A stretch of DNA of 64,000 nucleotides from Candidatus Thorarchaeota archaeon (GTDB lineage Archaea > Asgardarchaeota > Thorarchaeia > Thorarchaeales > Thorarchaeaceae), in assembly GCA_019057475.1 (NCBI GenBank), contig DXJO01000020.1, positions 64,001 through 128,000 on the forward strand, given 5' to 3'. Made by a program: the position numbers and the translations under genes. The notes beneath the pieces were generated by a model that had not been told where the DNA came from, ran no database searches, and saw nothing but the letters and a program-made list of their open reading frames with translations. This document shows positions 8,502 through 35,407 of the stretch, piece by piece. Each line of letters begins with the position of its first letter. The stretch's first letter is position 1.

Positions 8502-9165
8502 TGTCTGGCTCACAGAACAAGGATTGTTCTCATCTCGCCAAGTGGCAAAACGTGCAATACGAGCTGGCGGTGTTACGATCAATGGAAAACTAGCCAAGCC
8601 ATCAACTTGGATATCAGGCAAAGAAGAGGTTTTAATCAATGACCGTGCATCCAATACTCCACAGGGCTATTCCAAACTTATGGCGATAGAATCTGCACTC
8701 GACATTCAGTTTGCTGTCCCTGGTATCTTGGCTCTCGATATCGGCAGTTCAGCTGGTGGATTTCTGACCTATCTGGCAGAGAAGGGCGCCAAAGTTATCG
8801 GTCTCGAATATTCAGAAGATTTTATTATCCAATTGAGCAAAATCTCGGAAACATTTCCAGATGTTTCGGTTCTCATGTGTGATGCATTTGAAGTCGACCC
8901 TATGATTGTCTGCGGCCTAAACGAACTCGATCTTCTACTCGTTGACGTCACAACAAATCCCGATAATACAATCACCTTGACAAAGCGATTTACGCCCTTG
9001 TTGAAGAGGGGCGGCATGATTGTCGTAGCGATGAAAATCAAGCCAACAAGTGAGGAATTGCATGGTCTGCAGGATAAACTGGCTGAGCTCGGTTATAGGG
9101 ACATTCAGAAGGTCGTCCTAGATCAATCTCGGCAAGAAGTACATCTAATCGCTACTCACCAGTAA
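8488..9165 (+). CDS. TlyA-like rRNA methyltransferase (S4 + FtsJ domains)
   Basis: RLDVWL..GLFSSRQVAK S4 domain and ALDIGSSAGGF SAM motif. Confidence 0.88.
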   Translation: MPRLDVWLTEQGLFSSRQVAKRAIRAGGVTINGKLAKPSTWISGKEEVLINDRASNTPQGYSKLMAIESALDIQFAVPGILALDIGSSAGGFLTYLAEKGAKVIGLEYSEDFIIQLSKISETFPDVSVLMCDAFEVDPMIVCGLNELDLLLVDVTTNPDNTITLTKRFTPLLKRGGMIVVAMKIKPTSEELHGLQDKLAELGYRDIQKVVLDQSRQEVHLIATHQ

Positions 9166-9204
9166 GCAACGCTTTTATTCAGCTACCGCTTGGCACGCTT
9201 CGCA

Positions 9205-9271
9205 GGGGCGGTAGTCTAGCCCGGCTATGATGTCTCGCTTACACCGAGAAGATCGCTGGTTCAAATCCGGC
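9205..9271 (+). pseudogene. Truncated tRNA-Val(TAC) copy lacking the 3' acceptor strand
   Basis: 9212-9271 is identical to 9341-9400. The 5' acceptor GGGGCGG has no CCGCCCC partner after the T-arm. Confidence 0.8.
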
Positions 9272-9333
9272 ATTATGAGTATGCGAAATCTCACACAACG
9301 CTTTTAATCGGTCGTCAAACAAATTGTCGTCTA

Positions 9334-9411
9334 GGGCCGCTAGTCTAGCCCGGCTATGATGTCTCGCTTACACCGAGAAGATCGCTGGTTCAAATCCGGC
9401 GCGGCCCACCA
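9334..9411 (+). tRNA. tRNA-Val(TAC)
   Basis: Acceptor GGGCCGC/GCGGCCC, anticodon arm TCTCG-CTTACAC-CGAGA, encoded ACCA. Confidence 0.97.
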
Positions 9412-9601
9412 TCTGATTTCTTCTCTGGATATATGGCAACAACGACTCTTTTCCTTTTCGTCTTCTCCTAACCAGCAGGTCCGCATAATTATCTCTGTTT
9501 TCCTATAACCATATCAAATGTTCATCTAATAAATATACGAGTCTTACATAACTTCTAGATGCATTCCAGCTAAATTAGACATATATTTGAAATATTAGCT
9601 T

Positions 9602-9614
9602 AATAACTTTATAA
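9602..9614 (+). promoter_or_regulatory. BRE/TATA-like promoter for a putative small RNA or leader starting ~9637
   Basis: AATAACTTTATAA; the same AACTTTATA core occurs at 9698-9706. Confidence 0.5.
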
Positions 9615-9636
9615 CTCAATGTAGGGATTACTGTAC

Positions 9637-9700
9637 GAGTTCATAACCAATTCTGATGACGGAAGTAGGAGTGAGCTCAACTGACCGAACAGGTCAGAAC
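9637..9700 (+). ncRNA. Putative small RNA or leader complementary to the tnpB 3' RNA
   Basis: 9669-9681 is the exact reverse complement of 11498-11510, and 9641-9648 of 11588-11595. Ends in hairpin CTGACC-GAACA-GGTCAG. Confidence 0.4.
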
Positions 9701-9708
9701 TTTATATC
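9696..9708 (+). promoter_or_regulatory. TATA-like promoter for a (near-)leaderless tnpB mRNA
   Basis: AGAACTTTATATC about 25 nt upstream of ATG 9726. Confidence 0.55.
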
Positions 9709-9719
9709 TCGAAGGCGAC

Positions 9720-11405
9720 GTGACGATGGTTCATTCCAAGGGTGTGACAATCGCAGTTAAGGTTCCCATTAAGTGGGAATCAATGACCAAGAGAACTAAG
9801 CAGAGGCTTAGACAAATCGTCGGGCGTGACACCCGAGTCATTCGTGCCTTTCTTGGAGTAATTGAACAGCACGAAAATGAATTGTTGATGGGTCGCAGAT
9901 TGGAACGGATTAACGAAAGCAAACTGGATACACTCACGATAACTGCTGTCAAGGTCAAGCCGGGCTATAGTCAACGACTAAGTGTGCCTCATGACTTCAA
10001 GAAGCGCTTTCCAAGGATATCACACAATGAAATCCAGGAATGCAGACAGACCGCGGTGGCGCTTTATGAGAGCTACCTCGGGTTGAGGAGCAAGAGAGGA
10101 CGAAAGGCTTCAAAACCGTGCGCGGTCAACTCGACGAGGAGAATTCCACGCTGGGCTTTCTCTCAGAGATTCAAACTCTTTGAGAAGACAAATGCAACCT
10201 CTCGCTGGTGGCTCAATCTGCGGGATTCCTTTGACTCAATTCCTGAGGGCCGAAGAATTCATGATCGATTGACCGTTCCCCTGAGAATCTCGCCCTTTCA
10301 TCTGAACCAGTTCAAAAGGGGTGAAGTCAAGGCTCTACAGATATTCACTGATGACTCCAAAAAGTGGTGGGTGACCTTTGCTATACGTGTAGATACACCT
10401 GAACATCCTGACGAGTTTCTCCCACGTGCTGTTCTCGGCATCGATTTAGGAATTAAGAAGGCTGCATGTACTACGCTGGTAACTCCCACAAAGGTCAGAG
10501 AAACCCGCTACTTCAAGCAGAAGGATAAACAGGGTGTACTGCAAAAACTTGACCAGAGAATTTCTGACCTTCAGAGCAAGGCAGACACCCGATTCAATAG
10601 AGGTCAGAGCGCCGACATGGTGTTGGTGAAGACACGCGCACTCAAGCATAAACGAGAGAATGTTTCCAGAGAGTACGACCGCATACTCGTGAATCAGCTC
10701 ATGGAATACATCATTGGGCTGTCCAAGAAATACACTCTCTACATAGCCCTAGGTAGATTGAAGGGAATTCGTGGTGGTGCACGTCGAGGCAACTACAAGG
10801 GTCGCAAGTTCCGTGGAATGATTCACAGATGGACCTTTGCTAGAACCACCAACAGCCTCAAGCATCAGCTAGCACAGCTTGGTTGGCAGGTCGAGGGTAA
10901 GAATGCACATTTCAGGATTATTCCAGAGAACTGGACATCCATTATGTGTTGGAAGTGTGGTCGAAAGGGCAACCGTCCAAAGCAGAACCTGTTTGTGTGT
11001 TCGACCTGCGGCAACAAGTGCAATGCTGACAAGAATGGCTCCATTAACATCGCTGGACGACTAATTACGATCACAGAGTCACTTCATTCTGTGAGAGGAC
11101 TAGGTTTCTGGACATGTGCAATTGAAAGAGCACAAAGTTCGGGGCCGAAAGCCCGAAGGAAGACATGTTCTTCTCGAGGGAAGTCCTTACCCCCCAAAAG
11201 AGACAATGCATCTGGTCCAGGGGGGTCCGCGGCTGTTCACCAAGTTCAATCGGACCTTCTCAGCTTCGGCGACGAAACTGGGATGGGTGATAATGACCCC
11301 GCCGTGGAAAACACTGTGGTAAGACTCTCTGCTGCTGGAAGTGATGCTCCGGCAATAGGACAGGAGAAAGAAGCCAGGTCTGTGGGAGGGATTTCATTCC
11401 GATGA
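9720..11405 (+). CDS. tnpB: TnpB/Cas12f-family RNA-guided nuclease with a rearranged RuvC-II site; no transposase nearby (start 9720 GTG or 9726 ATG)
   Basis: RuvC-I LGIDLG (D242), IALG345RL at the canonical E position, PE403NWTS, Zn finger CWKC...CSTC, RuvC-III NAD437KNGSINI. Confidence 0.9.
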   Translation: MTMVHSKGVTIAVKVPIKWESMTKRTKQRLRQIVGRDTRVIRAFLGVIEQHENELLMGRRLERINESKLDTLTITAVKVKPGYSQRLSVPHDFKKRFPRISHNEIQECRQTAVALYESYLGLRSKRGRKASKPCAVNSTRRIPRWAFSQRFKLFEKTNATSRWWLNLRDSFDSIPEGRRIHDRLTVPLRISPFHLNQFKRGEVKALQIFTDDSKKWWVTFAIRVDTPEHPDEFLPRAVLGIDLGIKKAACTTLVTPTKVRETRYFKQKDKQGVLQKLDQRISDLQSKADTRFNRGQSADMVLVKTRALKHKRENVSREYDRILVNQLMEYIIGLSKKYTLYIALGRLKGIRGGARRGNYKGRKFRGMIHRWTFARTTNSLKHQLAQLGWQVEGKNAHFRIIPENWTSIMCWKCGRKGNRPKQNLFVCSTCGNKCNADKNGSINIAGRLITITESLHSVRGLGFWTCAIERAQSSGPKARRKTCSSRGKSLPPKRDNASGPGGSAAVHQVQSDLLSFGDETGMGDNDPAVENTVVRLSAAGSDAPAIGQEKEARSVGGISFR

Positions 11406-11586
11406 AGGCAGACGAAGCTCCGACTAGGCCTTGGGTAGCGCCAAGGCTTGATGGCGACATCGAGTCGGGGAAGGGTGGAACACAGGAGTTTCCGAGGGTT
11501 GAGCTCACTCAACCTATGGGAACGGGTCAGCCGGCCCGCCCTATCATTTTCAGTCACTGCGATATGGGCGGCAGGTTTAGCTGATT
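11376..11586 (+). ncRNA. Putative omega/reRNA-like structured RNA at the tnpB 3' end (may extend 5' into the ORF)
   Basis: Nested stems CTCCGACT/AGTCGGGG, GCCTTGG/CCAAGGC, GATG-GCGA-CATC and TCAGC/GCTGA enclosing CCGCCC/GGGCGG; homologue at 35206-35407. Confidence 0.75.
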
Positions 11587-11787
11587 GGGTTATGAGTTGA
11601 TTGGAACCACCAAATTAGACCGATTCGTGAAGACATTCGCGGACTCAAGATACTTTGGTTGTCGAGAAGAGCATAATCTGTTTCCTTGGAGATAACAGTG
11701 CATCTGTCATTAATCACCAAAGCATTGAAGAGCCAATTCGCTAGCCCAAAGACTTGCGGTGAGTTCCTGCGGGTTTGACCATAGAAT

Positions 11788-11909
11788 GCGGGAGTAGCCA
11801 AGACTGGTCAAAGGCGGCGGACTTAAGATCGTATGAAGATATGGGGTCATTCGAATAAGATATCCGCTCCCGTAGGGGTCCGTGGGTTCAAGTCCCACCT
11901 CCCGCACCA
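11788..11909 (+). tRNA. tRNA-Leu(TAA) with 34-nt intron (11828-11861)
   Basis: GCGGGAG/CTCCCGC acceptor, GCGGA-CTTAAG^A-TCCGC, long variable arm, ACCA. Confidence 0.95.
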
Positions 11910-11991
11910 ATCTCTCCAAAAGCAAGCACAAGATAGCTTCTGAGCGAAGATTTATGACTACGCCAATGGCGAAGAGCTGCGGAACTCATAG

Positions 11992-13356
11992 GTGAGGATT
12001 GCATTGACTCTGGACGACTCTGGTTATAGGGGCCTAGTTCTTGAGAAACTATCCGCTGCTGGCGCAAAAGTGGGTGACACAATCACAATCGACCATCAAG
12101 GACGAGAGTATGTAGGCATTCTCATGCCTCGTGCACAGGTTGGACGCGATCCTGACCATGTGGTGATAAAGCTCGTTTCCGGATACAACGTAGGCATTCG
12201 ATTGAATGAGTTGTCTGAAATTCACTCGATTAAATCGGGAAGGAAAAGAAAGCGGCCCGCAGAAAAGACTACATCCAAAGCACAATCCGATCTGCCTACT
12301 GTTTCAATCCTGAGTACTGGGGGTACGATTGCAAGCAAGGTAGACTATCAGACTGGTGCTGTCAATCCTGCATTGTCGGCACAGGATCTCTATGATACAG
12401 TTCCCGAGCTCAAGGATCATGCGAATATTCATGCTCGCATTGTAATGAGCGTTTTTTCAGAGAACATTCAACCTGCCGATTGGACGAAGATTGCTAGAAG
12501 TGTTTCATCTGAAATCAAGAAGAGCGTAGACGGAGTTGTCATTGCGCATGGCACAGATACGCTCGGAATCACTTCTGCTGCGCTTGCATTTGCACTTCAA
12601 GACCTTCCTGTCCCAGTCGTTCTTGTGGGCTCCCAACGGTCATCTGATAGACCGTCTTCTGATGCTGCTATGAACCTGATTAGAGCAACTGATTTCGTCG
12701 GGCACGCGAATGCTGCAGAAATAATGGTGGTAATGCACGGTCAAACAGATGATACATTCGCATATGCACACAGGGGAACTCGAGTGCGTAAATGCCACAC
12801 TAGCAGAAGGGATGCTTTCCAGTCAGTCAACTACAGTCCCTTATTCAAAATAGACGAAACGGGCATAGCTGAGCTGTCTGCTCCTCTTCTGCGACGAAAC
12901 CCCGATCGCAAACTCAAGATGAAGCCTAAGTTTGATGATCGAGTCACTATCGTGAACACTTCTCCAGGAATCAAACCTGATGTGATTGACTCGTACGTCG
13001 ATAGCGGATACAGAGGACTTGTACTGGCCGGAACTGGTCTTGGACATGCTCCTGAACACATTCATTCAGCACTGAAACGAGCCATAGATGCCGGCGTCAT
13101 TGTGGCCATGACAAGCCAATGCATCTGGGGACGCGTCAATATGAACGTATATCGACCAGGCGTGGAGATGCTCGAAATGGGCGTCATACCATGCGAAAAT
13201 ATGCTCACCGAAACTGCGACTGTAAAGCTAATGTGGCTTCTTGCAAACACGAAGACTGTGGAGAAGGCACATGCTGCAATGTCTGAGTGCATCGTTGGCG
13301 AGATAAGCATGCGAACTGAACAGTCCGAGTATCGAATACAGTCGGAGGCCTGTTGA
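11992..13356 (+). CDS. gatD: Glu-tRNA(Gln) amidotransferase subunit D
   Basis: KL.SGYNVG N-domain, TGGTIAS, HGTDT and GSQRSSDRPSSD. Confidence 0.97.
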   Translation: MRIALTLDDSGYRGLVLEKLSAAGAKVGDTITIDHQGREYVGILMPRAQVGRDPDHVVIKLVSGYNVGIRLNELSEIHSIKSGRKRKRPAEKTTSKAQSDLPTVSILSTGGTIASKVDYQTGAVNPALSAQDLYDTVPELKDHANIHARIVMSVFSENIQPADWTKIARSVSSEIKKSVDGVVIAHGTDTLGITSAALAFALQDLPVPVVLVGSQRSSDRPSSDAAMNLIRATDFVGHANAAEIMVVMHGQTDDTFAYAHRGTRVRKCHTSRRDAFQSVNYSPLFKIDETGIAELSAPLLRRNPDRKLKMKPKFDDRVTIVNTSPGIKPDVIDSYVDSGYRGLVLAGTGLGHAPEHIHSALKRAIDAGVIVAMTSQCIWGRVNMNVYRPGVEMLEMGVIPCENMLTETATVKLMWLLANTKTVEKAHAAMSECIVGEISMRTEQSEYRIQSEAC

Positions 13357-35205: not shown

Positions 35206-35407
35206 AGGCCTGCTGAGTAATCCTTAGGCACTTGATGGCAGACAATACCTTAGCTGAGCTTCAGGTTACACTGGAGTATGATGGAAACGTCCGGCTGAGG
35301 GAGGGTGGAACACAGAAGCTTCTTGCAGTTGGGCTCACTCATCTCAGGAAACAGGTCAGGCCGGTTCGAATCCCCCTTGCTGAAGGGGCGGACCGAAACA
35401 AGCTTGA
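35206..35407 (+). ncRNA. Orphan copy of the tnpB-associated structured RNA
   Basis: 35237-35341 aligns without gaps to 11407-11511 (66/105 identical by hand), with compensatory stem changes. Confidence 0.8.

Follow-up and report, generated by a model that had tools for sequence, protein, structure and literature searches.

A structured leader upstream of a tnpB gene in an Asgard archaeon is complementary to the apex of the last hairpin of the gene's own omegaRNA, the guide-bearing RNA at the 3' end of tnpB. The complementarity is conserved, covaries between loci and is specific to the subfamily, and the leader itself is structured on the + strand. The gene lies in the window, by which we mean the whole 64,000-nt stretch analyzed here, positions 64,001-128,000 of contig C54 of a 3.3-Mb Candidatus Thorarchaeota genome that is 96% complete (C42, C18, C9 and similar handles denote other contigs of this genome). 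The pattern across homologous loci makes it very probable that the complementarity is functional and, with rather less assurance, likely that it acts at the RNA level. The particular coupling proposed below, in which the leader would switch between its own fold and the omegaRNA, we regard as evenly poised between right and wrong.

Complementarity and covariation

The segment GAGTGAGCTCAAC (9669-9681) matches the reverse complement of 11498-11510 exactly (13 nt, 100%, found also in a repeat listing), and 9669-9682 pairs over 14 nt, with one G-U, with 35327-35340 (AGTTGGGCTCACTC) of an orphan omegaRNA, a copy that lacks tnpB. Both matches had been pointed out in an earlier reading of the DNA without database searches (the sequence-only reading), and both were found as described. 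If uniform composition is assumed, about 4e-4 perfect 13-mer complements are expected by chance between a segment of ~100 nt and one of ~250 nt. About 80 homologous loci (labelled L0xx) were gathered from Thorarchaeota genomes, 55 genomes of the order being positive, and nhmmer-type profiles built from the first loci located the leader in 79 of them and the scaffold in 80. Since the complementarity recurs with differing sequences in about 70 distinct homologous loci, the duplex is far beyond chance. The comparison of leader and 3' RNA across homologous loci, which the sequence-only reading had proposed as a check, thus came out in its favor: the complementarity is conserved and it covaries.

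The four full-length tnpB paralogs of this genome (47-67% protein identity) all hold the pairing with different sequences. The leader segment is GAGTGAGCTCAAC in the window copy; in the C42 copy (67% identity) it is GAGTGAACTCAACTG opposite CAGTTGAGTgTCACTC, with one bulge in the partner, and in the C18 copy GAGTGAAAACCCTC opposite GAGGGTGTTCACTC, while the C9 copy has 14 perfect bp (GTGAGTGAAACTCC; C18 and C9 are at 47% identity each). Across the loci there are at least eight compensated versions of leader and tail, among them double changes in the core (GAATGAA/TTCATTC in L057; GAGTGAG/CTCACTC in the window and L062), CTCACCTG/CAGGTGA (L024, L037) and CTCTAA/TTAGAG (L064). Helices of 14-16 bp occur in L070, L083 and L090, and a stepwise passage from A-U through G-U to G-C can be followed from CTCAAC to CTCGAC opposite GTTGAG and then to GTCGA (L014).

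The mean duplex energy is -20.6 kcal/mol for cognate and -16.9 kcal/mol for non-cognate combinations; none of 10,000 permutations reached the cognate mean (z = -11.4), and the core GAGTGAA/TTCACTC is Watson-Crick paired in 496 of 504 cells. Within this genome the own leader is the best partner of each full copy's tail (C42 ties with C54), and the window leader is the best of the four for two orphans, 35232-35359 and C21:106137; the former pairs with it at -28.3 kcal/mol, against -17 to -22 with the other three leaders. With RNAcofold, the intermolecular helix is within the minimum-energy structure in 52 of 74 loci. In a joint RNAalifold fold GAGTGAG/CTCACTC is the sole long-range helix predicted, the program having recovered structures only in part from the profile-based alignments. 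For the distant TnpB-like loci C54:171517-174230 and C53:6795-9700, taken with long flanks, global RNAduplex pairings were meaningless.

Two simpler origins of the match were tried and rejected. In one, the left segment would simply be copied directly from a palindromic hairpin on the right; this fits the window copy only, the right segments of C18 and C9 being non-palindromic and still complementary. A bulge-helix-bulge processing site would not suit a duplex whose bulge is at most 1 nt, on one strand. The sequence-only reading had also described a second, collinear duplex between TCATAACC (9641-9648) and GGTTATGA (11588-11595). The two are complementary and the match extends to 13 nt at 85%, but it is not conserved: when the 5' part of the leader is compared with the region downstream of the scaffold, cognate combinations are no better than non-cognate ones (z = -0.11), and the motif GGGTTATGAGTTG occurs only in the window locus, its 94%-identical ortholog L011 and one orphan. 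We treat this duplex as lineage-specific or due to chance. A small open reading frame (ORF; 11584-11697, TTG start, about 37 amino acids, MGYELIGTT...) lies downstream of the guide, and an ORF with the same first residues follows the orphan omegaRNA C39:22394 at a similar distance; the 13-mer GGGTTATGAGTTG may be shared because both begin MGYEL.

The leader

The leader stands at all four full-length tnpB copies of the genome and at no orphan, giving 4 leaders against 19 omegaRNA tails, ~15 tails being tnpB-less copies. Every full-length copy among the homologous loci carries the same layout, namely CTTAATAAC-TTTATAWA, a spacer of 25-26 nt, GTAYGAG, GAGTTCA, the variable hairpin P2, GAGTGAA with 6-8 variable bases, P3 (CTGACC-GAAAC-AGGTCAG), TTTATATA, a Shine-Dalgarno (SD)-like GGCGA or GGTGA, and the start codon. 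The two TATA-like boxes and the closing hairpin listed by the sequence-only reading are in place (Table 1). In 45 of 60 distinct loci TATA box 1 is 25-26 nt from the conserved 5' motif of the leader, and it probably drives transcription of both the leader and tnpB. TATA box 2 lies at a variable distance of 16-25 nt from the start codon, with an SD-like GGCGA (9714-9718) between the two in the window. Because this distance is variable and often too short for an SD-led gene, a promoter role of TATA box 2 for tnpB is doubtful, and the leader would instead be the 5' untranslated region (UTR) of a tnpB transcript driven by TATA box 1.

P1 is paired in 88.6% and P3 in 97.6% of cells in an alignment of 30 loci, and folds of single sequences reproduce the P1-P2-P3 architecture. 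Wherever a P3 pair has changed on one side only (18 cases), the outcome is G-U on the + strand, which argues that the structure is selected on that strand. The 5' strand of the leader, GAGTTCA, resembles the omegaRNA loop GAG(G)TTCA, and the final 12 nt of the scaffold recur in the 3' part of the leader as GAAACAGGTCAG. Closure by an archaeal box C/D small RNA (sRNA) or kink-turn (K-turn) was considered and discarded: a box C (RUGAUGA) is not conserved, CTGATGA (9653-9659) being found only in the window copy and its ortholog and other loci having unrelated sequence there, and the conservation of CUGA reflects only its place in the P3 stem and not a box D.

The omegaRNA

Copies of the 3' RNA all diverge at one point, after ...GAAC(A/G)GGTCAG or the variants GGTTAT, GGTCAT and GGTCGG, which in the window is 11530; in other genomes the pairwise homology between copies stops within 0-2 nt of the scaffold end. 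Sharp shared ends of this kind, here 11530/11531, typically mark the passage from an omegaRNA scaffold to a flank-derived guide. In the long-range stem of the scaffold, 7 of the 8 pairs show double changes, 2-12 at each, and a conserved structured RNA with a sharp border to a variable guide is accordingly present at the 3' end of tnpB. In the orphan copies homology to the scaffold starts further upstream than the conserved core, near 11085. An Rfam search of 9000-12500 returned nothing but tRNAs above the thresholds.

The partner of the leader is the apex of the last hairpin of this RNA and not a free anti-repeat. Across relatives the apex consists of a variable stretch followed by a near-invariant TTCACTCA, and the variable part with TTCACTC sits 20-35 nt upstream of the guide. 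Most relatives have an open apical loop of ~20 nt closed by CTTGCA/TGTAAG; in the window the apical part can also pair with itself (11496-11503 with 11508-11515). The same variable stretch followed by GTTCACTCA has been described downstream of Asgard tnpB genes and was tentatively read as a guide (Altae-Tran et al. 2023, PNAS; PMC10691335, section 9); the window copy carries the variant GCTCACTCA in place of that motif.

Table 1. Features of the tnpB locus and of the orphan omegaRNA, in window coordinates.
Feature	Positions	Strand	Remarks
TATA box 1	9608-9615	+	TTTATAA at 9608-9614; CTTAATAAC upstream, resembling a transcription factor B recognition element (BRE); kept in the four paralogs and about 79 loci
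Structured leader	9637-9700	+	P1, P2 and P3; profile matches in 79 loci
P1	9637-9643 with 9672-9678	+	GAGTTCA with TGAGCTC; family form GAGTTCA with TGAACTC
P2	about 9650-9668	+	variable hairpin
Anti-loop segment	9669-9683	+	GAGTGAG (family GAGTGAA) and variable CTCAACTG; overlaps the P1 3' strand and first P3 bases
P3	9681-9697	+	CTGACC-GAACA-GGTCAG in the window
TATA box 2	9701-9707	+	TTTATAT; conserved (TTTATATA in the family)
tnpB	9726-11405	+	559 amino acids from ATG at 9726
OmegaRNA scaffold, conserved core	11386-11530	+	profile matches in 80 loci; ends ...GAACGGGTCAG
Last scaffold hairpin	11488-11523	+	outer stem 11488-11494 with 11517-11523 (fold)
Leader-complementary segment	11498-11510	+	GTTGAG and CTCACTC: variable stretch and published 'GTTCACTCA' motif
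Guide (probable)	11531-11550	+	flank; similarity between copies ends at 11530; length assumed
Orphan omegaRNA	35232-35359	+	without tnpB or leader; apical segment 35327-35340 pairs with leader 9669-9682

A proposed switch between leader and omegaRNA

The mechanism that we put forward, at the even chance stated above, is as follows. Transcription of tnpB would begin some 26 nt past TATA box 1, and the 5' end of the transcript would fold into P1-P2-P3. The leader GAGTGAA with its 6-8 variable bases would pair as RNA with the apex of the last omegaRNA hairpin (variable bases and TTCACTC), and the same leader bases would thereby have two alternative partners, their own 5' end in P1 or the omegaRNA loop. 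As the 5' end of the leader resembles the omegaRNA loop, the leader could switch between a closed form and an omegaRNA-bound form, the latter having 13-16 bp and invading also the first bases of P3. The omegaRNA might belong to the transcript that carries the leader, as its 3' end (cis), or be supplied by orphan loci (trans). Such a switch would link tnpB expression or the loading of TnpB to the presence of a cognate omegaRNA, and its purpose might be feedback control of TnpB synthesis, or guide loading and assembly of the ribonucleoprotein (RNP). Long-range pairing that encloses the ORF, for processing or autoregulation, was one of three options offered by the sequence-only reading, and both the conserved, covarying complementarity and the best fit of the orphan are in line with such long-range or trans pairing for regulation. 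A bolder form of the idea, which we think unlikely, is that the leader serves as an address code: its variable bases would select the cognate omegaRNAs, orphan ones included, and hold them at the 5' end of the corresponding tnpB messenger RNA (mRNA), with TnpB then loading the right guide RNA or being made only when one is present. If true, it would give a guide system derived from a transposon a layer of RNA-RNA specificity, at a stage connected with how the dual-RNA type V systems arose.

Several observations weigh against pairing between RNAs or against this use of it. The loci are related, which inflates locus counts as a measure of independent events, and the number of independent ones is nearer ten than seventy. 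At the variable positions a scoring that favors G-U gives 43 G-U against 12 A-C; under equal scoring the numbers are 34 and 22 and the excess is not significant (p = 0.14). The 8-bp core is nearly invariant, which suggests that a protein might recognize it by sequence in addition to the pairing. In the window itself the cofold minimum is without the long-range helix, both partners folding locally (the leader in P1, the apex as GGGTTGAG-CTCA-CTCAACCT). The conserved TTTATAT between leader and gene has no place in the scheme and may be a second promoter, a weak terminator or a protein site. Lastly, we infer from sequence comparison the leader RNA itself, its ends, its pairing in vivo and its regulatory or assembly purpose.

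Alternatives

The question of level can be taken together with the rival view that the inverted pair GAGTGAAC...GTTCACTC flanking tnpB works as DNA, either as sites for a recombinase or transposase or by pairing as single-stranded DNA during mobilization. The candidate enzyme would be a large divergent protein, presumed to be an Asgard Cas1 homolog. We judge this view, its enzyme included, unlikely, although the 8-bp core is almost invariant across proteins only 45% identical, as a protein-binding site would be, a divergent gene of ~1800 amino acids lies upstream of most copies, and the overall bias of G-U over A-C is not significant; the core and the large neighboring gene are what keep a DNA-level role alive. 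In addition, the survey of Altae-Tran et al. (PMC10691335), in its article text, likens GTTCACTCA to the start of a repeat of the clustered regularly interspaced short palindromic repeat (CRISPR) kind and links it to the Cas1 homolog. The window copy and its ortholog, however, keep the repeats without the large gene, and the Y1 transposase was not found in this genome. The repeats are also not terminal, as those of a terminal-inverted-repeat transposon are: conservation runs on for ~70 nt to the left and for 20 nt to the right, where the copies diverge at the scaffold end, so that one repeat is inside the leader and the other lies 20 nt short of the right boundary. On the left the limit of the mobile unit is hard to place, the copies within the genome being too diverged and homology elsewhere often continuing into the large upstream gene. 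Orientation is uniform in all ~80 loci, with no inversion seen, and on this ground an invertible switch was rejected. The inner parts of the pair covary base for base, for which pairing is a simpler account than recognition by a protein. At two interior positions of the helix there are 21 G-U and 0 A-C, the A-C cases clustering beside the bulge, where the alignment is ambiguous. The suggestion of the sequence-only reading that the segments are element-end motifs is weakened: the internal position of the repeats, the one-sided changes of P3 and the tally at the interior positions speak against it, but the overall G-U excess falls short of significance. RNA pairing is favored because P3 is a + strand structure, the two interior positions admit G-U only, the repeats lie inside conserved sequence and their orientation is uniform.

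Granted RNA, the leader might act as a separate small RNA, a stoichiometric part of the TnpB RNP comparable to the trans-activating CRISPR RNA (tracrRNA). It has a TATA box of its own at fixed spacing, a U/A-rich stretch comes after its terminal hairpin, the complementary loop is kept in orphan omegaRNAs, and GAAACAGGTCAG matches the scaffold end. Such an obligate two-RNA guide we nevertheless hold to be quite improbable. The guide-bearing RNA holds a full scaffold and closes its own last stem, making a second RNA unneeded; a strong oligo-T terminator is absent; and the SD-like motif and start codon after the leader would be explained more simply by a 5' UTR. The related proposal of the sequence-only reading, a single repeat-like RNA pairing with a tracr-like scaffold, is likewise unsupported, a split guide being unlikely because the omegaRNA carries its own complete scaffold, with terminal hairpin, and a guide that begins at the 11530/11531 boundary. 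No repeated units, and hence no array, are present in 9400-11720, where scaffold and guide are contiguous. A further view, that the omegaRNA loop is a second, internal guide which brings TnpB to its own leader DNA and represses transcription, appears very improbable to us. The variable stretch was proposed as a possible guide in PMC10691335 (article text), the sole match noted for it, there having been no systematic search for others, is the gene's own leader or promoter region, and the RuvC-II site is rearranged in this TnpB family. Against this, the stretch is inside a scaffold hairpin and 5' to a conserved motif, a placement without parallel among the known guides of TnpB or Cas12, and it is not hypervariable among close copies; an ordinary guide follows the scaffold end, and on our reading no conserved sequence resembling a target-adjacent motif (TAM) is seen beside the leader site.

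TnpB and the surroundings of the locus

The window protein matches the Pfam family Cas12f1-like_TNB (PF07282) at 1.3e-10, the NCBIfam guided_TnpB model at 2e-20, which is under the curated cut-off, and solved TnpB and Cas12f chains at 2e-9 for the best. It has the RuvC-like fold and zinc-ribbon (TNB) domain of a TnpB nuclease. The aspartates of RuvC-I (GIDLG) and RuvC-III (NADKN) are kept, and glycine (in IALGRLKGI) takes the place of the RuvC-II glutamate when the protein is aligned to solved structures of TnpB and Cas12f, so that the canonical D-E-D triad is incomplete. Glycine at this position fits the 'rearranged RuvC-II' TnpB and Fanzor-like classes (PMC10691335, article text). Our guess is that a conserved glutamate in PENWTS could stand in for it (residues about 340-350 and 398-403 are concerned). 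The Y1 transposase TnpA (PF01797), by whose presence in the element or the genome IS200/IS605 elements are recognized, has no match in this 96% complete genome, control genomes being positive.

Transfer RNA (tRNA) genes recur around these elements. The window has tRNA-Val twice, at 9206-9271 truncated at the 3' end and at 9334-9411 complete, neither with an intron; genomes of the same genus have a single, intron-containing tRNA-Val and are without roughly 9420-11692. The flank directly after the omegaRNA end (CCGGCCCGCCCTATCA) resembles the missing 3' end of the truncated gene, with CCGGC on both sides, and 13 of the 16 positions in 11531-11546 agree with the tRNA-Val 3' end of related genomes; from this resemblance the probable guide would match the tRNA-Val 3' end. 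In many copies of this family, judged by right flanks such as those of L039, L033, L040, L043, L016 and the window orphan (35360-35385), the end directly meets or lies close to a fragment of a tRNA gene (T-arm or 3' end). This distribution suggests that tRNA genes are preferred targets.

Elements without tnpB occur in several copies, at C34:68514-69000, C18:123283-123715, C21:38775-39260, C21:110962-111530 and C21:177760-178207, and also at the starts of contigs C37 and C2. They contain the last ~110 codons and an omegaRNA of the C42 type, and five of them share an upstream block with a long hairpin of its own, CTTACAGATCTCT...AGAGATGTAAGAAAC. They may be a mini-element that is mobilized or selected.

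The divergent ORF of ~1800 amino acids, which has no Pfam or NCBIfam match, lies directly upstream in 51 fetched loci (some of which overlap the same place) and at three paralogs of this genome; neither the window copy nor its ortholog has it. ORFs of about 1630-1820 amino acids, five in number, all intact and on the minus strand (C42:28777-34177, C18:41297-46181, C9:15750-20997, C54:166134-171516 and C53:1346-6794), are each divergent beside a TnpB or TnpB-like gene and, likewise without Pfam or NCBIfam match, have a PD-(D/E)xK-like motif (...VFEIKTK, ...ILEVKTK). They are presumably the published Asgard Cas1 homolog partner.

Relation to known systems

The closest described relatives are two Asgard-linked TnpB groups, Cas1H-Asgard-1 and -2, that are associated with Asgard Cas1 homologs in the article text of PMC10691335. 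By its features the window gene is to be placed in this "Cas1H" group: the host is an Asgard archaeon (Thorarchaeota), RuvC-III has the NADxN motif, a variable stretch and GTTCACTCA lie downstream, and most relatives have the large divergent neighbor. Unlike the groups as described there, the window copy is without that neighbor, and the guide follows the scaffold end. The article text of the survey, as distinct from its supplement, makes no mention of an upstream leader or of its complementarity. What is new here is that the published 'hypervariable' stretch forms one side of a helix whose other side is the leader of the same gene, the two covarying, and the 'hypervariable region plus GTTCACTCA' of that survey would thus receive a different reading, as a testable helix.

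With the canonical TnpB-omegaRNA (OMEGA) systems, such as ISDra2, the locus shares its RuvC/zinc-ribbon nuclease, the overlap of a structured RNA with the 3' end of the nuclease gene, a guide starting at the element end and the many orphan or decayed copies. It differs from them in a genome without Y1 TnpA, in a protein of 559 amino acids with an extension of ~110 amino acids and glycine for the RuvC-II glutamate, and in the conserved structured 5' leader, whose pairing partner is the loop at the apex of the last omegaRNA hairpin. We know of no description of such leader pairing for TnpB. Cas12 descends from TnpB, which is also a compact genome editor and whose omegaRNA has been regarded as one RNA sufficient in itself. 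If a second, conserved RNA element pairs with the omegaRNA, this class of enzyme would gain a step of control or assembly that is not known for it, and the pairing suggests a way of keeping paralogous TnpBs and many orphan guide RNAs matched within one genome. In engineering this TnpB family, the leader or the loop may need to be deliberately kept or removed.

With the tracrRNA and CRISPR RNA (crRNA) of type V and type II systems, and with the TranC intermediates, the locus shares a separate segment upstream of the nuclease gene that is complementary to the guide-bearing RNA. Unlike them it has neither array nor split, its guide RNA keeps the closing stem, no second RNA is needed to complete the scaffold, and the duplex is in a hairpin loop and not in a repeat adjoining the guide. 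There is also a parallel in regulation. The long form of tracrRNA (tracr-L) reportedly autoregulates Cas9 through DNA binding at the cas promoter (Workman et al. 2021). As with tracr-L, one RNA here holds both a segment and its mimic and can fold on itself, and expression of the nuclease would be linked to its RNA components; unlike tracr-L, which acts on promoter DNA, the link seen here is one of RNA complementarity alone.

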